Source of the DNA: an archaeon
Lineage (GTDB): Archaea; SpSt-1190; DYHY01
Assembly: GCA_037442745.1 (NCBI GenBank)
Contig: JBBIPP010000008.1
Coordinates: forward strand, 690-64,689
Length of the DNA stretch: 64,000 nucleotides
Direction of reading: 5' to 3'
Below the pieces are notes generated by a model, which was not told the origin of the DNA, did not search any database, and saw only the letters and a program-made list of their open reading frames with translations. Positions 1,750 through 20,954 of the stretch are shown here, piece after piece (position 1 is the first letter of the stretch; every line of letters begins with the position of its first letter). The position numbers were made by a program, and so were the translations under genes.

Positions 1750-4553
1750 CTTCCTTCCTTGGGCATATCACACTCAAAGTCCGGTTGTCCCAGAAAGGGC
1801 CCGCCGGATTTCAAAGAGGCATAAAATGAAGTTCCTTGTCCGTACGGACCGGGACCTGATATCGGCAAGTGGGAATGAGCAGTAAAGAAATGTAACGCGC
1901 AAGATAAGCGCAACTCACCAATTCATTCTCATGATGACACCGTGTTACTAGGAGCAAAGACGCTGTTAGATGGATTGCTTGGCTCAGAAAGTCGAAGAAG
2001 GGCGTGGCAAGCTGCGATAAGCCCGGGGTAGGTGCATGCAACCTTTGAACCCGGGATCCCTCAATGTGACTTCATGGCCAATAGAAATATTGGTCAGTCC
2101 GAAAGGACGGAGAACGCGGAGAATTGAAACATCTTAGTATCCGCAGGAAAAGAAATCAAAACAGAGATTCTGTGATTAGGGGCGACCGAAAACAGAAGAG
2201 GCCAAACCGAATCCGGCGGGGCAACCCGTTGGAAATGTGGTGTTGTGGGGCCTGGAGCACATCCCAAGTGCAGAGATCAAGTCCACTGGAATGTGGCGCG
2301 ACAAAGGGTGAAAGCCCCGTAATCGTATGCATTAGGGATGATTTCCAGAGTCCCCGAGTAGGGTTGGTCGGTATTCCGGCCCGAATCTGGGAGGCATTAA
2401 CTTCCAAGCCTAAATACTACCTGAGACCGATAGCGGAATAGTAGATTAGTCGAAAGCTGAAAAGAACTCTGAAAAAGAGGGTTCAAAGAGCATGAAATCT
2501 AATAGCCAAAGTCAGCGGCTGCATGAAAGAGTCCGGGCCGAACGCAAGCAAGTCCGGATAGTCGATGTAGCCGCGTCAGTTTAGAATAACGGAGCGGAGA
2601 GTTTTGGATAGTGGCGAGGTTAAGGGGTGTTATCCCCGAAGCCGAAGCGAAAGCAACAAGCACGCAGTACAAGCGAGGTGCGCCGTCATCAAGGCGGGCA
2701 GTCACTACCCAAAGACCTGAAGCTAGGCGATCAAGTCCGGGGCAGGACGAAGTCCGATCAAAAGTCGGATGGAGGTCCGTAGAGATACTACAGTCAAAGT
2801 GTTCTTTTGACCTTGGATTAGTGGCGAAAAACCAATCGAGCCTAGCAATAGCTGGTTCCTAACGAAATATCCCGCAGGATAGTCCCGAAGGAGTGTGGCT
2901 ACCGGGGTAGAGATACTGATCGAAAGTTGCGGATCCGAAAGGATCTAGCTTTCTGTCAAACTCCAAACCTGGTTGCAGCGTAGATTTCGGGAAGCAGGGC
3001 GCATGGGGTAAGCTTGGCGTCCAAGAGGGGAACAACCCAGAGTTAGGTTAAGGTCCTAAAGTGTTAGTTAAGTGTGAAAGGAGCAAGATTGTTTGCATTC
3101 TAAAACAGCCGGGAGGTAGGCTCAGAAGCAGCCATCCTCTAAGAAGTGCGTAAAAGCTTACCGGTCTAGGATGCGAGCGTCGCAGATGGACAGGGCTAAA
3201 CTAACCACCGATACCCAACGCCACGGCCTAGGCCGTGTGCGGTAGTTAGGCAGGTTTGTCGCGCAGAAGCAGGGCTTAAAGGTCCTGTGGAGCGGCATAC
3301 TACGAGAATTCCGCGTTTAGTAGCATCAAAGCCAGGTGAGAATCCTGGTCGCCGAAAGGACAAGGGTTCCTCAGCAATGGTCGTCAGCTGAGGGTTAGTC
3401 GGTCCTAACTCGACCTCTAATACAAGTCGAGGAAAGGGAAACCTGTTAATATTCAGTACCAACTGTACAAGGTTTGAAGCGGGTTCCGGACACTTTTGGA
3501 CAGGCAGAGAGTGACTATCGTCATTTTCAATCGCATAAAACGAGGGAGTAACGTAATGTTGAGAACTCGGAGAAAGCGTTATGGGGTGCGTCGCAAGGTG
3601 CGCTTCTGCTGCGTTCTAGAGTCCGTGAAAAGGGAATCCGATACAAGTGCAGATTGACCGTACCAAGAACCGATACTGGTGTCCTGCCAGAGAATGGTAA
3701 GGCGTGTCAGGGCTAACCACGATAAGGGAAATCGGCAAATTAGCACCGTAACTTCGGGATAAGGTGTGCCTAATTCCGTGCATAACTTGTGCGGTCTTAG
3801 GTCGCAGTGACATGAGGAGCTGGACTGTTTAACAAAAACATATCCGATTGCCAAAGCGGTGACGCTTCGTATAATCGGAGAGGCCTTCCCACTGCCGGTT
3901 CGTCAAACTCGGGTCCAACCGAGCTAAGCGCCGGTGAAGGGAGGGGGTAACTGTAACCCTCTTAAGGTAGCGCAATTCCTTGCCGATTAAATGTCGGCGC
4001 GCATGAAGGCTCAACAAGGTTCCTGCTGTCCCTATTGTGGACCTGGTGAACAAGTTCTCCTAGTGCGGAGACTAGGGACTCCTATCGGGTCACCAAGACC
4101 CCATGGAGCTTTACTGCAGTTTAATCTTGCTTTACGAGGTACGTTACATAGCGTATGTAGGAGAGGCTATGTCCGGTTCTTAGGGATCGGACTACTCGAC
4201 AATGTAACACTACATTCCGTGCCTTGCAAGGCTCTACCTTAACTGGAACAGGATTAGATGGGCAGTTTGGCTGGGGCGGCACCCCGACGAAAAAATATCA
4301 TCGGGGCCCAATGGTGTGCTCATCCGGGTCAGAACTCCGGAGTAGAGTGCAAAGGCAAAAGCACGCCTGATGTCATAGTGATCAACAAACTAAGACAAGT
4401 CGAAAGACGGGCTTAGCGAACCTCAATGTCCCTCTTAATGAGGGCTTGAGATAACAGAAAAGCTACCCTGGGGATAACAGAGTTGTGGCGGGCGAGAGTT
4501 CCCATTGACCCCGCCGTTTGCTGCATCGCTGTCGGCTCGTCCCATCCTGGCTG

Positions 4554-5312
4554 TGCAGTATCCACGGAAACATCAAACGTGTTTCTGAAAGATACTTTAT
4601 CAGCTGTGGAATTGGACAATACAACAGTGCAGACAAAGGCAATAATCAACTCGAAATAAAATATGGGAAAAATTTTACCAGCAAAAAACGCTAGGTAAAG
4701 TTCCATTGAGGGTCTATAAAAATCAAAGAAAGGTGGTTCCAAGGTTGGCTAGCGCCAACAAGAGTTCTCCAAATGCATTAGGGTTAGAGAATTTGAAAAA
4801 GAATTAGTAACAAAAGAAAGAATATGTCATAGCCAAAGGCATAGCCAAAGGCATAGCCAAAGGCATAGCCAAAGGCATAGCCAAAGGCTTATGATGCTAC
4901 ACTTCTTTTGCTCCAAGTACAAAATAATGTACTTCTGTAGTTCTAGTGCTAACGAGAATTCTTGTTTAGCGCTACTAACTAAGGCCAGTAATGGCAACAA
5001 AATGGAACCGCAGTTTTTTTGGTGGATATGGACTTTCTATTTTGACAAAATTAATACTTTGTCTTTACAGAATTGTTCAGTTCCGGCTAAAACGCTGAAG
5101 AGTAATGTTTTCAGAGGCACGAGTTTTCCTTACAAAAACAAATGATGTTAAGAGGTCTTGGTTCAATTCAAGGCACCTCTAGACGTGCATCAAGCCCTTC
5201 TTTCTTCAGAAGAAAGAAGCCCTTGACGGGAAGAAAGAAGTCAAAAGCTTCTTTTTGACCTCGAGGGACTTTTTCTTCGCAAGAAAAAGGGGCTCGTTAC
5301 GTCCCGTGGCTG
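4554..5312 (+). other. Intervening sequence / intron within 23S rRNA domain V (between the A2503-region and U2585-region homologues)
   Basis: LSU conservation stops after 'catcctggctg' (~4553) and resumes at 'caagcagccaagggtaagggtgttcacc...gaacgtcgtgagacag' (~5313). The inserted ~750 nt is AT-richer and has no LSU homology. Imperfect direct repeats of rRNA sequence flank it ('ggctcgtcccatcctggctg' / 'ggctcgttacgtcccgtggctg'). It contains several perfect hairpins (e.g. cttctttcttc/gaagaaagaag) and no intact homing-endonuclease ORF. Confidence 0.6.
4828..4888 (+). repeat. 12-bp tandem repeat (catagccaaagg) x5 inside the 23S intervening sequence
   Basis: Five perfect head-to-tail copies of 'catagccaaagg' read directly from the sequence. 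Confidence 0.9.
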
Positions 5313-5356
5313 CAAGCAGCCAAGGGTAAGGGTGTTCACCTATTAAAGGGGCTCGT

Positions 5357-5390
<34 letters not shown>

Positions 5391-6121
5391 TGCTTACTGG
5401 TAGGAGTGCAGGCAGATTGAAAGGAAAGTGACATTAGTACGAGAGGAACACGTCGCTGGCGCCTCTGGTAGACCGGTTGTCTGATAAGGCATCGCCGGGC
5501 AGCTACGCGCTTGGCCCGTAATGGCTGAAAGCATCTAAGCCAGAAAGGGTCCTTGAAAACGAATCTGCCATTCTGGCAACCCCATGAATTTGGGAGTCCA
5601 GACAAGGCCGCCGCTAAAACAGCGGGTTGATAGAGCAGTGGTGTACATGAAAAGGGCAACCGATTCATTCAGCCAGCTGCTACTAATTGGCCGAGGCTCT
5701 AGTAACACGGTGTTATCATGTCTTGTGCAAGCAAGGGTATCCGCAAGGGTTCTTGTGCTCGCACAAGCGGTTCTCTGTGGACGGACTTTTGAAAGAATCT
5801 CCGCCCACGGACCGGCCGGCCCCTTCGGGGGACGGCCACCATTTTTAACCAAAGGGAACTCGTATGACGGAAGAGATTTTCTTCCGGAAGGAAAAGAAAA
5901 TACGGGTTTGCACTAACAAAGTTCTTCCAAGAATTTTTTGGAGGATTGAGTTTTTTTATTTAGATAGCGATAGTTCTATTGAAATTTGGGGATTTTTCAA
6001 TTGCGGGAAAGCAAGAGAGATGAAAAAGTCAAACTTTGTTTGCAATTACTATTCAAAATAAATAATCTTCATACGAATAAACTTTAGATACCCACTTCTA
6101 TTTCAAATTCTCTGAGAAGAT

Positions 6122-6415
6122 GTGCATGCAATTAGGTATCTGTTTTCTCTTTCTAGACCCTCCCTATTTGTCGAAAACCGAATCCCGATTATACGGAAAA
6201 AGGGGGATTTGCACACAGGTTTCGATCACGAAAGATTCGCATCCTCAATTGCCAAATGCCAACACAAATTGCCGATAACATATGACGATTCCTTGGAGGT
6301 CAGACGCCCGTTTTCTTTCGCCAAGTTGAACGAGTGGACGCTTCAATACGGAATGAACAACTACAAGCAAAAAACCGTTGCTAGAGGAAAAAAACTGTCC
6401 ATATACAATTACTGA
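6122..6415 (+). CDS. hypothetical protein (97 aa)
   Basis: ORF downstream of the rRNA operon with no recognisable motif. Confidence 0.25.
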   Translation: MHAIRYLFSLSRPSLFVENRIPIIRKKGDLHTGFDHERFASSIAKCQHKLPITYDDSLEVRRPFSFAKLNEWTLQYGMNNYKQKTVARGKKLSIYNY

Positions 6416-6483
6416 TTTTCCCAAGAAAGAATCCTTAAGAAACCCCTTCCCCCTATAACCCCCAAACTTCCCAAAATACCACA

Positions 6484-6708
6484 ATGTCTGAGACTTGTAC
6501 CGATAAACAGGGAAGAAAGCGATTCAAGGAGACGAACCAGCTCGTCTCTGAATTGCTAAAGGAGCACAAAATCACGAGGGGCTCGAAAAAAGAAGAGCGG
6601 GAGCTAGAGGAAAAAAAGCGCCCGGAACAGTTGAAGAGCTCGAACAGGTTCCCATTCAGGACGAAGAAAGACCTGAAAAAGCATGACGGGGACGTAGAGT
6701 TCGCCTAA
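6484..6708 (+). CDS. hypothetical small highly charged protein (74 aa)
   Basis: ORF rich in K/E/R with no recognisable domain. Confidence 0.25.
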   Translation: MSETCTDKQGRKRFKETNQLVSELLKEHKITRGSKKEERELEEKKRPEQLKSSNRFPFRTKKDLKKHDGDVEFA

Positions 6709-11196: not shown

Positions 11197-12645
11197 TCAT
11201 TTCCCGGATAGAAGCGCGATTCCAGCCCTGAGAGAATATGCCAGTTCCCCAATGCTCCTTGTCCTGAAAAGCCTCCCGAAAACATAAGACAGCCTGAAAT
11301 AGAATTTCTTGTAGAGGCGGTCTCTCTCTTCAGATATCTCGTCCGCCGAAAGAACGCCGTTAGAATATGCCGACGGGTCGGACAGGTAGAATCCCATTGA
11401 GGAGAAATTAACTTTCCGCCCGTCCCTGAAAGACCCGTTCTTTGAAACAAGTTTCGGATATATCGGGGACCCGGGCATTGGAACGAACGAGGAAATGTGG
11501 GCAAGGTCAGGGTCGCAGTCCAGAAGAAGCCTTTCCGTCTCCTTTATTTCCTCCCTTGTTTCGGTCGGATAGCCGACAATAACATATGCTTGGGTCACAA
11601 TCCCCGCCCTTTTCACTTCCTTGAATGCCCCGACGATTTTTTCTGGAGAAAGCCCCTTTTTCATAAGGCCAAGTATTCTCCTGCTTCCCGACTCGAGGCC
11701 AATACAGATTTTCGAGCATCCGGCTTTCAGGAGAAGGCCGACCGCCCGTTTGTCGAGGAGATCCGCCCGCCTGTTGCAGGCGAAGGAAATCCTCCTAGCA
11801 AGGCCCCTTTTCACCATTCCCCTCGAGAATTCAGTGAGCCACTTTTCCGAGAATCCGAAAATATCGTCCTCAATCTGGACGTGGCTGTATCCGGCAACAG
11901 CACAACTCTCAATCTCATCAAGAGCGCTCTCAACGCTTCTCGCCCGCCATCTGTGCCCGAGAACTCCCGGAGAAGAGCAGAATTCGCAGGAATAAGGACA
12001 CCCCCTTGAAAATATTACATATGCAGTCTTCTCGGGAATCCCTGCCGGGAAGGCCCGGTCGTATTTTCGGAATTCCGGACGGCTTCTGTCGGGAAAGCCA
12101 AAAGAGTCCAAGTCAGTTGAGAGAATTCCCGCCCTGAATTCAGAATATCCCTTGGACAGGATTCCCGGAATTCCGGAAAAATCCCGCCTTCCCTTGGAGC
12201 AAGCCTTGGCCGCTTCAAGGAATGCGAGTTCGCCCTCACCCACAACAACACCCCCGCACCCGAGAGCCTTTAGGCTCTCCTTTGGGAAAGCGGTTGGATG
12301 GGAGCCTCCAACAATTGAGGGTATTTTGAACCTTTCCGCAAGGGAGCAGACTTTCTTTGCCCAATCAACCGATATTGTCGAGCAAGTCACCCCAACAAGA
12401 ACTGGCCCTCTTTTCATTTCCAAGGAAAGCTCCCTTTCCCAGTCGGGGGAAGTTTCGCAGTCGAACACTCTCGCCGAAAAGCCACTCCGTTCGAGAAATT
12501 CCGAGAGATAAAAAAGGTTTACCGGCGGTATCGGGACGCTCACTGACTTGAACTTTTCGAACCATTTGGACGGTGGCCTCACAAGAAGAACGCTCCCTTT
12601 CTTCGACATTCTTTCTGCAAGCCCCGCTACCCGATTATATATCAA
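11197..12645 (-). CDS. B12-binding radical SAM protein (482 aa)
   Basis: CxxxCxxC motif 'CPYSCEFC', an N-terminal B12-binding-like domain, and about 45% identity to the adjacent paralogue. Confidence 0.7.
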   Translation of the reverse strand: MIYNRVAGLAERMSKKGSVLLVRPPSKWFEKFKSVSVPIPPVNLFYLSEFLERSGFSARVFDCETSPDWERELSLEMKRGPVLVGVTCSTISVDWAKKVCSLAERFKIPSIVGGSHPTAFPKESLKALGCGGVVVGEGELAFLEAAKACSKGRRDFSGIPGILSKGYSEFRAGILSTDLDSFGFPDRSRPEFRKYDRAFPAGIPEKTAYVIFSRGCPYSCEFCSSPGVLGHRWRARSVESALDEIESCAVAGYSHVQIEDDIFGFSEKWLTEFSRGMVKRGLARRISFACNRRADLLDKRAVGLLLKAGCSKICIGLESGSRRILGLMKKGLSPEKIVGAFKEVKRAGIVTQAYVIVGYPTETREEIKETERLLLDCDPDLAHISSFVPMPGSPIYPKLVSKNGSFRDGRKVNFSSMGFYLSDPSAYSNGVLSADEISEERDRLYKKFYFRLSYVFGRLFRTRSIGELAYSLRAGIALLSGK

Positions 12646-12677: not shown

Positions 12678-14126
12678 TTATCCAAAAGCGGTTGAGAGCC
12701 CGGCAAGAAATATGCGATAAAGCCCCCCAAGCGACCGCGCATTGGAGAGAGTTCTCAGGGCGAACGACGGCCGAAGGGAGTATCTGCGATATAGGGAATT
12801 CCTGAATTCAACGAGTTTTTCCGCCGAGAGGGAGTTCTGGCGCTGGGCCGAGCAGGTGAAGAACCCCGCAGGAATTGCCAAAGGCCCGATTAGGCCCGCC
12901 TGCGCGAACTTTTTGTGCTCTTCCGTTCCGGGAAAAGGCGAGAGGAGGGTTATTACCGGAACGTCCGGGGAAATTTCAAATAGGAGCTTTTCCGTCTCCC
13001 GGAGAGTCTCGAGAGTTTCCCCGAAGAATCCCAATACGAAGAAAGCCTCCGTCAATAGACCTTCCTTCCTTGCTTCGTAAAACGCCCACCGGATTCTCCC
13101 AACGCTCTCGCCCTTCCGGACGCTTTTCAGGATTCTTTCGCTTCCCGATTCGACTCCCATGCACACCTTCCTTGCTCCGGCACTCCTTGCAAGGCGGAAT
13201 TTCCCCCGGCTTGTCAGGTCCGCCCTTGTTGAATAGTCCCAGGTGATTTTCTTCGAATACCCCTTTCCAATCATTCCCTTGCAAAAATCCCTGAACCATT
13301 TTTCCGAGAATCCGAAAACGTCGTCATCGAACTGGATGTGGCAATATCCAGCCCGTATGCAGTTTCCGACCTCGTCAAGAACGCTCTCAACGCTTCTCGC
13401 CCTCCAGGCTTTTCCATGGATTACTGTTGATATGCAGAATGTGCAGCTGTAAGGACAGCCCCTTGACGCTGTTATGAAAGCAGTGCTTTCCCATATTCCT
13501 GCAGACGCACAGGAATCGTATTTCCTGAATTCCGGAAGGGTTCTATCTGGGAATCCAAAGGAATCAAGAGCCTCCGCTCCCGGCAGGTTTCCTTTTGTTC
13601 TTCCGGAAAACACCCTGTTTCCCCTCCTTTCAGAAGCGCTGTCATTTTTCGGCAAGCGACCCGTCCTCAATATTTTTTCAAGGGCGAACTCCCCCTCGTT
13701 TAGGACAAGAAAGTCCGCGCCAAGCTCAAGGAGAAGTGAGCTTCCCCTAATTGTCGCATTGGCCCCGCCAAGAACCGTTTTTGCCCCGTATTTTCCGGCA
13801 AGGCGGACAATTTCCCGGGAATTTTCAATGGAAAAGCTCCCGGCAGACAGGCCAACGAACCTAGGCTTCAGGCGAACAAGTTTTTCAGAGAAAATTTCCC
13901 CGGAATATTCCGAGAATTCATAATCAACAACTTGCGCTGAAAATCCCCTAGATTCCAAGAAAGATTTGAGATAAAAGAGGTTCATTGGAGGCTGTTTCCA
14001 AATTGAAGAGAAAGCCCCTGAGAGCCCATTGTCCGATTCCGGCCTGACAAGGAGGATGTCCAAGCCCATGCTGGTTCGGGATCCGTCCGCGGTTTTATTC
14101 TTTTCCGATTGCCGGAAGAAGTACAT
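12678..14126 (-). CDS. B12-binding radical SAM protein, tandem paralogue (482 aa)
   Basis: CxxxCxxC 'CPYSCTFC'. Same length and conserved blocks (PPxNLFYL, FGFPDR...EFRKYD) as the downstream gene. Confidence 0.7.
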   Translation of the reverse strand: MYFFRQSEKNKTADGSRTSMGLDILLVRPESDNGLSGAFSSIWKQPPMNLFYLKSFLESRGFSAQVVDYEFSEYSGEIFSEKLVRLKPRFVGLSAGSFSIENSREIVRLAGKYGAKTVLGGANATIRGSSLLLELGADFLVLNEGEFALEKILRTGRLPKNDSASERRGNRVFSGRTKGNLPGAEALDSFGFPDRTLPEFRKYDSCASAGIWESTAFITASRGCPYSCTFCISTVIHGKAWRARSVESVLDEVGNCIRAGYCHIQFDDDVFGFSEKWFRDFCKGMIGKGYSKKITWDYSTRADLTSRGKFRLARSAGARKVCMGVESGSERILKSVRKGESVGRIRWAFYEARKEGLLTEAFFVLGFFGETLETLRETEKLLFEISPDVPVITLLSPFPGTEEHKKFAQAGLIGPLAIPAGFFTCSAQRQNSLSAEKLVEFRNSLYRRYSLRPSFALRTLSNARSLGGLYRIFLAGLSTAFG

Positions 14127-20730: not shown

Positions 20731-20748
20731 TGCGGCCACCGGGATTCG
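20731..20748 (-). repeat. duplicate of the tRNA-Gly 3' end (discriminator + acceptor + T-loop, 18-19 nt)
   Basis: 'tgcggccaccgggattcg' is identical to the tRNA-Gly 3' terminus 'tgcggccaccgggattcg' at 20884-20901, about 137 bp downstream in tRNA orientation. No complementary 5' acceptor strand is present, so it is not a full tRNA. Confidence 0.6.
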
Positions 20749-20883
20749 AGACAACGCCCTTTCCCAAGCACAGGCTTGGACAAGCCCTCGAGGGGAGAGG
20801 AAAGAACTTGCGTGTCCCTCATGACACGCCCCTTCTTTACGCCCGTCAACGGATTTTTCTTCGGGAAGAAAAATGGGTTGAGG

Positions 20884-20954
20884 TGCGGCCACCGGGATTC
20901 GGACCCGGGTCCTAAGCTTGGGAAGCTCATATCCTACCACTAGACTATGGCCGC
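20884..20954 (-). tRNA. tRNA-Gly (anticodon CCC)
   Basis: Reverse complement folds as GCGGCCA-ua-GUCU..GGAU-a-UGAGC-UUCCCAA-GCUUA-GGAC-CCGGG-UCCGAAU-CCCGG-UGGCCGC-A, anticodon CCC. Confidence 0.85.

Follow-up and report, generated by a model that had tools for sequence, protein, structure and literature searches.

The 23S rRNA gene and its insert

The window, by which we mean the whole 64-kb stretch of archaeal DNA that was analysed, carries an rRNA operon in the order 16S (60-1523), tRNA-Ala (1678-1750) and 23S. The Rfam archaeal LSU model matches positions 1946-5705 from end to end, and against this model cmscan reports one large insertion, with 757 nt standing where the consensus has 2 positions. 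It falls into the terminal loop of helix 91 (H91) of domain V, the hairpin GGccguGCAG..gcggCC. The gene and the insert are delimited as follows.

1946..5705, forward strand: host 23S rRNA gene (Rfam RF02540, 2410.8 bits, model positions 1-2987), with exon 1 at 1946-4560 and exon 2 at 5316-5705
4561..5315, forward strand: inferred intron, 755 nt, GC 0.39, ORF-less, with splice sites derived from bulge-helix-bulge (BHB) geometry

An intervening sequence of about 750 bp in 23S domain V had been proposed in a sequence-only reading of this DNA, and the 757-nt Rfam insertion in the H91 loop bears this out. The insert itself stands, although the borders given for it (4554-5312) were a few bases off, and its site, put at about E. 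coli 2527-2530, has to be moved to the H91 loop between E. coli 2534 and 2535, in a numbering worked out in this analysis. Excision of 4561-5315 leaves GGCUGU, the loop GCAGUA and GCAGCC, which agrees in length and pattern with the Rfam consensus GGccguGCAG, two nucleotides and gcggCC; the exon join, CCUGGCUGUGCAGUA to GCAGCCAAGG, likewise has the consensus length, and the restored loop reads GUGCAGUA followed by GCAGCC. The insert was also correctly described as richer in AT than its surroundings: its GC content is 0.39, against 0.51-0.53 in the exons and 0.49 in the remainder of the window.

A contig from a sister species, L044, provides the closest comparison. The host 23S gene would appear to be functional, because its two exons are 99.0% and 99.5% identical to those of L044 while the flanking spacers are only 83-87% identical. 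The sequence-only reading had allowed for a chimeric assembly artefact; a chimera seems an unlikely source of the insert because the same site and insert recur in L044, which comes from an independent JGI metagenome.

The existing annotation calls a spurious 97-aa gene on the intron. The longest ORF within the insert is one of 84 aa, as had been noted before, and it is disrupted by indels in L044. A Pfam search of the 7 internal ORFs and of the six-frame translations returned nothing relevant (best E 0.12, to an unrelated family), in keeping with the earlier statement that the insert holds no homing-endonuclease ORF. Protein coding and a decayed homing endonuclease were both rejected, there being no trace of LAGLIDADG, His-Cys, GIY-YIG or HNH in any frame. 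Neither strand of 4350-5500 gave an Rfam match to a group I or group II intron at E<=1, only sub-threshold microRNA-like and snoRNA-like hairpins; a group II intron was rejected on this ground together with the lack of a Pfam match in ORFs or six frames. The same Rfam scan, which the sequence-only reading had recommended, and the lack of an endonuclease remnant tell against its suggestion of a degenerate group I intron. Group I introns do occur nearby in the 23S genes of DPANN archaea, for example at 2500 and 2593 (PMC6125680), and a self-splicing intron of either group could have lost its endonuclease or maturase ORF. However, the fold is a simple rod without a P3-P8 core, inserts of 24-50 nt found at the H91 site in other archaea are too short for ribozymes, and neither an intron match nor a LAGLIDADG or other protein remnant is present, so that we regard a self-splicing ancestry as extremely improbable.

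Junction structure and inserts at the same site

In the minimum free energy (MFE) fold of 4530-5345, a helix h of 6 bp, a 2-nt bulge, a helix H of 4 bp, a 3-nt bulge and a helix h' follow one another across both junctions. The parts of this BHB-like motif are listed below.

4549..4554, forward strand: outer helix h, 5' strand GGCUGU, H91 stem; pairs with 5316-5321 in the MFE fold
4555..4558, forward strand: central helix H, 5' strand GCAG, nucleotides 1-4 of the mature H91 hexaloop; pairs with 5310-5313
4559..4561, forward strand: 5' bulge UAU; inferred cut after A4560, with U and A staying exonic as hexaloop nucleotides 5-6
4562..4567, forward strand: inner helix h', 5' strand CCACGG; pairs with 5304-5309 and closes the entire intron
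5304..5309, forward strand: inner helix h', 3' strand CCGUGG, from the MFE fold
5310..5313, forward strand: central helix H, 3' strand CUGC, within the intron, from the MFE fold
5314..5316, forward strand: 3' bulge, AA (2 nt) if U4554.G5316 pairs, otherwise AAG opposite U4554
5316..5321, forward strand: outer helix h, 3' strand GCAGCC, H91 stem

The 3' cut is placed after A5315, making G5316 the first nucleotide of exon 2. Measured against the hBHBh' criterion, the 5' bulge has 3 nt, H has 4 bp and both h and h' are present, while the 3' bulge of 2 nt (or AAG) gives the relaxed form of the motif. Alternative registers with a strict 3-4-3 motif at H91 were worked through by hand and rejected, as none restores the consensus loop length.

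Searching for the pattern of the 3' junction yielded 42 loci from genomes and 3 from metagenomes. An insert of 24-605 nt lies at exactly the H91 site in at least 44 other archaeal loci, all with both exon anchors; one further locus (L008) was left out of this count for want of the 5' anchor. The hosts are DPANN, Altiarchaeota and other metagenome-assembled genomes (MAGs), and the inserts, whose lengths span 24-755 nt with that of the window included, show no sequence conservation among themselves. These data show what appears, from the genes, to be a recurrent archaeal intron site in the H91 loop, adjoining the peptidyl-transferase and factor-binding centres, and the site is thus not the odd one for archaea that it had been taken for.

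Alignment of the loci reveals how far the junction structure is maintained. All cells (100%) of helix h are paired over 42 loci, one position showing a C-G/U-A swap, and the GCAG of helix H is invariant (42/42), although the pairing of H and the 2-nt spacing in other loci are imposed by the search pattern and do not count as independent evidence. Two features are free of this restriction. With a 5' bulge of 3 nt the helix that follows pairs in register, at 69-83% against 17-45% off register in 36 loci, and helix h' shows changes on both sides in 8/8 pairs over the 42 loci, where 72% of its cells are paired as against 30-45% when it is slid. The two 5' nucleotides that would be retained in the loop are constant within lineages (4 kinds: AA, CA, TA and TC); the two intron nucleotides before the G are variable (9 kinds in 45 loci). 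Conservation of the exon part gives the relaxed geometry to all 44 other loci in which both exon anchors are present. A BHB motif spanning both junctions had been suggested as something to look for, and the BHB option is supported by the BHB-like motif in the MFE fold, by the restored consensus loop and by a junction helix that covaries across 42 loci.

The sister species (16S identity 99.3%) has an insert of 605 nt in place of 755 nt, without four of the five 12-mers and without a 106-nt three-hairpin module that are present in the window, and the substitution rate between the two inserts is 4.8%, against 0.5-1% in the exons. In these respects the insert behaves like a sequence that is spliced out, as far as the comparison of two genes can tell.

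A lineage-specific H91 extension that is kept in the mature 23S rRNA would also be expected at one site in many lineages, and a basal helix that covaries is equally what such a structural extension would produce, which counts against reading the covariation as a signature of splicing. However, lengths of 24 to 755 nt without sequence conservation, a difference of 150 nt between sister species, GCAG and two loop nucleotides that are invariant or lineage-constant though buried in a helix, and bulges with the geometry of the splicing motif all argue for removal. H91 is directed towards the GTPase centre and touches both H89 and the sarcin-ricin helix (PMC2952862), and a retained extension of 755 nt is unlikely there because of this position, with the tip of H91 facing the factor-binding region. 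Taking these points together, we consider retention very improbable.

Removal could in principle stop at excision, the third option of the sequence-only reading, with the endonuclease or another RNase taking out the insert and the 23S rRNA remaining as two pieces held together in the ribosome. The junction structure would act equally well as a cleavage signal, and the outcome would resemble the bacterial intervening sequences or the H98 excision of Thermococcales. We nevertheless judge this distinctly improbable: standard cuts in the bulges leave ends that restore the conserved hexaloop exactly, the conservation per lineage of the two nucleotides retained there is best understood if the loop re-forms, H91 lies within the functional core, and the products of the tRNA-splicing endonuclease EndA are normal substrates of the RNA ligase RtcB.

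We conclude that the insert is very probably an ORF-less archaeal rRNA intron with a relaxed BHB motif in the H91 loop, removed by the tRNA-splicing endonuclease, and we infer its splicing on the following route. The 16S-tRNAAla-23S precursor would be transcribed, the intron would fold on itself into a very stable rod, the closing helix CCACGG/CCGUGG would bring the two junctions together over 755 nt, and the GCAG of the hexaloop would pair with the CUGC of the intron leaving UAU as the 5' bulge and AA(G) as the 3' bulge; folding, closing helix and bulges are supported in silico and by comparison. By analogy with known archaeal BHB introns, EndA would then cut after A4560 and A5315, and RtcB would join the exons and probably circularise the intron. 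The ligated exons would read ...CUGGCUGUGCAGUA joined to GCAGCCAAGGGU..., and the circularised intron would join ...CCCGUGGCUGCAA to UCCACGGAAAC.... We stress that the motif is not a strict 3-4-3 BHB, and that endonucleases of strict specificity might refuse it; the alpha4 and alpha'2 enzymes are of this strict type, the (alpha-beta)2 and epsilon2 enzymes of broad specificity.

Rod, tandem repeat and module B

The intron is composite, consisting of a rod of about 580 nt with a recent expansion of a 12-mer at its tip and of a 106-nt three-hairpin module, termed module B. Its internal features are as follows.

4569..5149, forward strand: rod domain, a single long hairpin, imperfectly paired and bearing small side hairpins; outermost helix 4569-4575/5143-5149
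4828..4888, forward strand: tandem repeat (CATAGCCAAAGG) x5.1 at the rod apex; TRF score 122, matches 100%
5151..5180, forward strand: small hairpin between rod and module B, from the fold, with one double compensatory change relative to L044 (5159/5170)
5182..5187, forward strand: helix strand GACGUG, pairing with UACGUC at 5298-5303 and enclosing module B
5191..5296, forward strand: module B, a 106-nt three-hairpin unit rich in CUUUCUU/AAGAAAG, missing from L044

The MFE of the intron is -287.5, compared with -179 +/- 6 for shuffled sequences (z -17.8), and the L044 intron gives z -13.4. The minus strand reaches only -232.6, so that the sense fold is more stable by 55 kcal/mol, and in the rod G.U pairs outnumber A/C oppositions by 33 to 7. 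This excess, like the lower stability of the antisense fold, speaks in these predicted structures for selection on a sense RNA as opposed to a decaying DNA palindrome. Rod identity to L044 is 95.2%, and where substitutions fall at paired positions the pair is kept in 10/16.

The 12-bp repeat in five copies and the nested, perfect palindromes described in the sequence-only reading are both present, the former as the x5.1 array at the rod apex and the latter, for example, at 5197-5207/5230-5240 and as a cluster at 5190-5298. At the rod apex L044 has a single CATAGCCAAGGCTATG apical hairpin, and the 12-mer array would on this comparison be a strain-specific expansion of that hairpin by repeat slippage. 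The helix GACGUG/UACGUC closes a small GCAUUUUGC loop in L044. Between the sister species we thus see, at the level of the two genes, a rod whose tip appears to expand and that stays paired, and a whole module apparently gained or lost.

Imperfect direct repeats of exon sequence, reported before as about 22 nt long, do exist at the ends (GGCTCGTCCCATCC--TGGCTG versus GGCTCGTTACGTCCCGTGGCTG); the repeat is only moderately above chance in the window (z 4.5, 0/300 shuffles) and weaker in L044 (z 1.9). A target-site duplication was rejected, as the exon-like repeat partly coincides with the end of module B and is weak in L044. The 12-mer array and these direct repeats, whose likeness to the exon is weak and composite, are side features, neither of which explains the insert.

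The long inverted repeat of the rod with its hypervariable tip, the second module nested in the insert and the weak exon-like repeats at the ends would all be familiar in a palindromic, MITE-like DNA element, one that inserted into the rRNA gene, or into a small intron already present, and was tolerated only through removal by the splicing motif. Such an origin concerns where the rod came from, not how the insert is removed. We find no second copy in the 64-kb window, in the 45 related loci save the orthologous insert of L044, or in viral contigs, the direct repeat is weak, particularly in L044 (z 1.9), and the G.U excess and weaker antisense fold indicate selection on the sense RNA; an element of this kind is therefore rejected as our explanation and is, as an origin of the rod, improbable.

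Other candidates were considered for the interior and surroundings of the intron. A separate BHB around module B, which would make it an intron within an intron, was rejected since its flanks form a 6-bp helix, a CAU bulge and a single pair. A C/D-box sRNA was rejected as well: two AUGAUG(C/U) motifs, inspected by eye, have no D box at the right distance, and there is no Rfam match. Cofolding of the 23S processing stem gave a perfect 20-bp stem with no clear BHB motif in the range tried.

Relatives of module B and comparison with known introns

Module B is homologous to the complete H91 intron of a distant archaeon, L015 (alignment A1; local alignment score 60, null 22 +/- 3.7). Its relatives comprise this whole L015 intron and the inserts in both the H91 and the H89 loops of another archaeon, L002, the H89-loop insert being found also by model R1 (47 bits, E 6e-7), besides the unit inside the rod intron of the window. 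On these alignments module B appears to belong to a family of mini-introns with members in the loops of H91 and H89 in other archaea. The difference between the window and L044 would reflect either a gain in the window or a loss in L044; an ancestral module B into which the rod was inserted later was rejected, as L044 has the rod without module B. Gene-less BHB introns could possibly move by a reversed endonuclease/ligase reaction on RNA followed by copying into DNA, or alternatively by insertion at the DNA level. That module B (5191-5296) represents a mini-intron family moving horizontally across phyla and loops, and that the excised 755-nt rod survives as a stable circular RNA, viroid-like in shape, and has its own function, is a bolder proposal that we regard as improbable. 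If module B is mobile, it offers a sequence-defined system for how archaeal introns without endonuclease genes spread, and the possible mobility of this nested family is the most interesting lead from the locus.

The insert is unusual mainly in its length, its very stable rod fold and its nested intron-like module. The 23S introns of Desulfurococcales and Thermoproteales (Desulfurococcus mobilis, Pyrobaculum, Staphylothermus), studied by the Garrett laboratory, have a BHB motif at which the tRNA-splicing endonuclease cuts them out, followed by ligation of the exons and circularisation of the intron. These classical introns reportedly occupy other positions of domains IV and V, and LAGLIDADG endonucleases are encoded in the long ones, whereas the intron of the window is ORF-less and lies at 2534/2535. 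The ORF-less ('remnant') and small hairpin BHB introns of Thermoproteales 16S genes (PMC4496867, Jay & Inskeep 2015) likewise lie in an rRNA gene, have a BHB core at the junctions of exon and intron, lack a homing-endonuclease ORF and adopt a thermodynamically favourable hairpin-like fold, with lengths from <50 nt to several hundred nt. The intron of the window differs from them in its location in the H91 loop of 23S, in its relaxed 3' bulge and in a far longer and more stable rod, and the hosts of H91 introns are an Altiarchaeota-related lineage and DPANN as opposed to Crenarchaeota.

Nawrocki et al. 2018 (PMC6125680) state that the LSU genes of Woesearchaeota, Pacearchaeota and Micrarchaeota contain BHB introns alongside group I introns, in agreement with our case as to gene and host groups. 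The text of that paper lists positions for the group I introns only (1923, 1931, 2500 and 2593) and does not describe the sites in the H91 and H89 loops, the family of mini-introns or the long rod. A literature search, covering sources other than subscription journals, for an intron at LSU 2534, in H91 or in DPANN/Altiarchaeota rRNA returned no description of the 2534/2535 site. Pyrococcus and Thermococcus excise an internal 23S helix without restoring continuity and resemble our case in the post-transcriptional removal of an internal 23S hairpin (PMC7758197; bioRxiv 10.64898/2026.03.23.713588). However, the H98 removal concerns a native helix and yields a permuted, discontinuous rRNA from a circularised 23S, whereas here a foreign insert lies in an essential loop and its removal would leave ends that restore the loop on ligation.

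In DPANN, Altiarchaeota and other archaeal MAGs the H91 inserts vary in size between 24-nt hairpins and a 755-nt rod, and 23S annotation, alignments and phylogenies of these lineages will be wrong if inserts in the loops of H91 and H89 are taken for rRNA. The tRNA introns of Thermoproteales, which are short, ORF-less and of the BHB type, are reportedly recognisable by sequence similarity at different positions of different RNA genes, and this is said to have been read as mobility. The family to which module B appears to belong differs from them in placing related units in two 23S loops of different phyla, one of these units lying inside another intron.

Host operon and insert

An archaeal rRNA operon opens the window, and we compared it with L044, a metagenome contig from a sister species.

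Features of the rRNA operon and its insert (window positions), with identity to L044
60-1523: 16S rRNA (Rfam), 99.3%
1678-1750: tRNA-Ala(UGC), between 16S and 23S
1946-5705: 23S rRNA, end-to-end match to the Rfam archaeal LSU model; exons 99.0% and 99.5%
4561-5315: insert, 755 nt
4569-5149: rod (long hairpin of the insert), 95.2%, 28 substitutions in 577 aligned bases
5191-5296: module B (three-hairpin unit of the insert)
ITS part 1 spacer: 95.4%
ITS part 2 spacer: 86.5%
Spacer downstream of 23S: 83.3%

In a focused run against the Rfam archaeal LSU model, the sole large 23S insertion has 757 nt against 2 consensus nt and lies in the loop of hairpin GGccguGCAG..gcggCC, which is helix H91, upstream of the A-loop hairpin. 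The ORF-less 23S insert that a sequence-only reading had placed at 4554-5312 is borne out, its limits moved slightly to 4561-5315, and so are its AT-richness (GC 0.39; exons 0.51-0.53, remaining window 0.49), its perfect palindromes, its largest internal ORF of 84 aa and its 12-bp tandem repeat, which is exact (CATAGCCAAAGG x5.1 at 4828-4888). That reading correctly put the site in domain V, but its position of ~2527-2530 in E. coli does not hold: aligned to the E. coli sequence with A2503/U2506 and U2552/G2553 as landmarks, it falls at 2534/2535, which is where the hexaloop of H91 has its final position.

The same rRNA operon is present on an independent JGI contig, L044 (Ga0116204_1001223), where an orthologous insert occupies the identical site. 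The insert of the window is therefore not an assembly chimera, a possibility that the sequence-only reading had raised. Its suggestion of a degenerate group I intron, to be checked with group I and II models, found no backing, as no Rfam group I or group II family matches at E<=1. The absence of a homing-endonuclease gene was confirmed: neither the ORFs nor full-frame translations of the insert contain a relevant Pfam family, and indels disrupt the 84-aa ORF in L044. The exon-like direct repeats reported at the flanks are a similarity between 5' exon end and intron end that scores z 4.5 here (0/300 shuffles), 3.8 in the Altiarchaeota MAG L022 and only 1.9 in L044, and that derives in part from the end of module B; we do not interpret it as a target-site duplication. 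No second copy of the insert was found in the window.

Several further features of the locus were observed. The 23S flanks 1930-1950 and 5700-5720 pair as a perfect 20-bp helix (CAUGAUGACACCGUGUUACUA / UAGUAACACGGUGUUAUCAUG), presumably the base of the 23S processing stem, and no clear BHB (bulge-helix-bulge) was seen in the stretch of this stem that was folded. Rfam gathering scans found no 5S rRNA gene in the 64-kb window. About 1 kb 3' of the 23S gene (5706-6700) is without a called gene, and synteny with L044 breaks up there, from 83% near the 23S end to scattered blocks of 79-84%. A minus-strand 'protein' of 97 aa in the public gene call (4413-4706; L001 5184-5477), spanning 23S exon and intron start and without Pfam match, is almost certainly spurious. 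Elsewhere, two adjacent paralogous minus-strand genes (11197-12645 and 12678-14126; about 470 aa each) both carry Pfam-labelled B12-binding and radical-SAM domains.

Junction structure and predicted splicing

The 5' exon ends in GGCUGU GCAG UA, followed by U CCACGG, and the insert ends in CCGUGG CUGC AA, followed by GCAGCC. Folding 4530-5345 places the H91 stem GGCUGU/GCAGCC outermost. Inside it, the 3' strand bulges by 2 nt (AA) before the 4-bp helix GCAG/CUGC; beyond this helix the 5' strand bulges by 3 nt (UAU), and the next helix, CCACGG/CCGUGG, closes the entire insert. The BHB search across both junctions that had been proposed earlier thus recovers the layout with a relaxed 3' bulge, and the modelled structure appears to be the archaeal splicing motif with this bulge as its one departure: as long as U4554.G5316 pairs the bulge stays at 2 nt, and this wobble must be unpaired for it to have the full 3 nt (AAG).

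In standard BHB cleavage, each bulge is cut 3' of its second nucleotide, which defines an intron of 755 nt at 4561-5315, removal of which joins CCUGGCUGUGCAGUA to GCAGCCAAGG, with loop length as in the consensus. The motif would point to the tRNA-splicing endonuclease as the predicted cleaving enzyme, which would cut at these positions and free the intron; ligation of the exons and circularisation of the intron would presumably follow. H91 is stacked on H90, extends in the direction of the GTPase-associated centre, and touches both H89 and the sarcin-ricin helix (PMC2952862). Given this location, the strong constraint on the host gene evident from exon identity to L044, and insert lengths ranging from 24 to 755 nt at the site, removal is a more economical reading than retention. 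Fragmentation, in which the insert is cut out and the 23S left unligated, is a possible alternative to splicing.

Inserts at the same site in other archaea

Scanning one representative genome per species for the 3' strand of the central helix H followed, after any two bases, by the conserved 3' exon, we obtained 42 loci, every one an archaeal 23S gene. The insert lies at exactly the H91 site in 41/41 loci with both exon anchors placed (L008, whose 5' anchor was not placed, is left out), with lengths of 24-196 nt. The hosts are labelled Woesearchaeota, Nanoarchaeota, Aenigmatarchaeota, Iainarchaeum, Altiarchaeota, Methanocellales and, for several MAGs, Methanosarcinales; the same pattern had no match in 2.9 million viral contigs. 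A narrower pattern applied to metagenome contigs returned L044 (605 nt), L045 (304 nt) and L046 (300 nt). Among the loci compared, the nearest rRNAs besides L044 are those of L022 (16S 82%, 23S about 79%) and L045/L046 (16S 83%), and all three related lineages have H91-site inserts: 173 nt in L022, 300-304 nt in L045/L046 and 605-755 nt in the window and L044. In the 23S domain V comparison, the H91 intron is the sole insert of the window and of the three relatives closest to it. Longer H91-site inserts of other lineages are also hairpin-like.

Since helix H and the 2-nt spacing are dictated by the search pattern, they are not independent evidence. In 36 loci, the register with a 3-nt 5' bulge and then an immediate helix is 69-83% paired at each position; pairing in other registers is 17-45%. 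In a gap-free junction alignment of the 42 loci, GCAG is invariant, 8/8 pairs of the inner helix have changed on both sides, and 72% of inner-helix cells are paired, against 30-45% with the partner slid. The two bases assigned to the exon are lineage-constant (AA 32, CA 8, TA 4, TC 1), and the two assigned to the intron take nine forms. Register, covariation and constant bases fit a loop re-formed after splicing better than one permanently buried in an extended helix.

We also observed that the H91 introns of L006, L010 and L021 (163-186 nt) have common ends, AAUGUCG.AGG.CAA ... UUGUCCUUCGAACUGUAG, and form a second recognisable family at this site. L006 (CAYMGH010000088.1) is an archaeal 23S on a contig binned as 'uncultured Gammaproteobacteria bacterium', with intron ends near-identical to those of the Woesearchaeota loci L010 and L021, and several 'Methanosarcinales' MAGs have 23S junctions of Woesearchaeota/Nanoarchaeota type; the bins of L006 and of L004, L005, L028, L034, L037, L038, L041 and L042 are probably contaminated or mislabelled. 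Among the compared loci L002-L046, 12 are longer by 23-161 nt in the stretch from CUACCCYGGGGAUAAC to H91, and 10 by 41-1047 nt in that from H91 to the sarcin-ricin loop, where the long inserts are presumably endonuclease-bearing or group I introns. The 16S-23S spacer tRNA of L002 (5449-5576, minus strand) spans 128 nt in its Rfam match and probably contains an intron.

Insert structure and a candidate mini-intron family

The minimum free energy of the 755-nt RNA is -287.5 kcal/mol, whereas dinucleotide shuffles reach -179 +/- 6 (z -17.8). Its fold is one long imperfect hairpin with the 12-mer repeat at the tip, followed 3' by a small hairpin and a three-hairpin domain, all closed by the junction helix. 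The antisense strand folds worse by 55 kcal/mol, and G.U pairs outnumber A/C oppositions by 33 to 7 in the fold, which indicates selection on the sense transcript and not a decaying DNA palindrome. The L044 intron likewise folds as a rod (z -13.4); counted up to 5190, as rows 5191-5204 are artefacts of alignment across the module B indel, 12 rod substitutions are at unpaired positions, 10 keep a pair (including one double compensatory change) and 6 break one.

The L044 insert is the shorter one because of two indels. At the rod tip, L044 forms one hairpin, CAUAGCC-AA-GGCUAUG, in place of the five 12-mers, so that the repeat is a recent slippage expansion of this tip. L044 also lacks the 106 nt of module B; the GACGUG/UACGUC helix that encloses module B in the window is present there too, around a small loop, GCAUUUUGC. 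Module B was either gained in the window lineage or lost in L044.

Over its full length, module B can be aligned with the entire H91 intron of L015 (104 nt; local score 60, shuffles 22 +/- 3.7); L015 is an uncultured archaeon with exons similar to those of Aenigmatarchaeota. The alignment with the L002 H91 intron (88 nt) is weaker. The covariance model built from all three found a second L002 23S insert (2535-2617, minus strand, about 88 nt; 47 bits, E 6e-7), placed by Rfam in the H89 terminal loop, which has the third-hairpin loop CUUCGCAAG in common with module B (window 5270-5278) and can be drawn by hand as a 3-4-3 BHB with one mismatch. L040 (Altiarchaeales) has inserts at both the H89 loop (161 nt, about 5690-5850, minus strand) and the H91 loop. 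From these similarities, we propose a gene-less family of three-hairpin mini-introns, present at two domain V loops in distant lineages and inside the window intron. Intron divergence is about 5-10x exon divergence in one close pair (window and L044), so that similarity still detectable in distant hosts suggests horizontal spread, although structural constraint could slow divergence.

A separate observation concerns tRNA-Gly(CCC) at 20882-20954 (minus strand), the last 20 nt of which, GTGCGGCCACCGGGATTCG, occur at 20883-20902 and again, 152 bp away, at 20731-20750. The 132-bp filler beside it is hairpin-rich, includes GAUUUUUCUUCGGGAAGAAAAAUGGG and weakly matches the mini-intron model (25 bits); two readings are possible, an integration scar left by an element at the tRNA 3' end or a module B relative.

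In the searchable literature, which leaves out many relevant papers, we found no description of the H91 (2534/2535) and H89-loop intron sites, the 755-nt rod or the three-hairpin family. ORF-less and hairpin-only BHB introns are known from the 16S rRNA of Thermoproteales (PMC4496867), and the LSU genes of DPANN archaea are reported to hold BHB introns as well as group I introns (PMC6125680). Beside these systems, the interest lies mainly in a recurrent intron site adjoining functional centres of the ribosome and in the hint of mobile, gene-less mini-introns.
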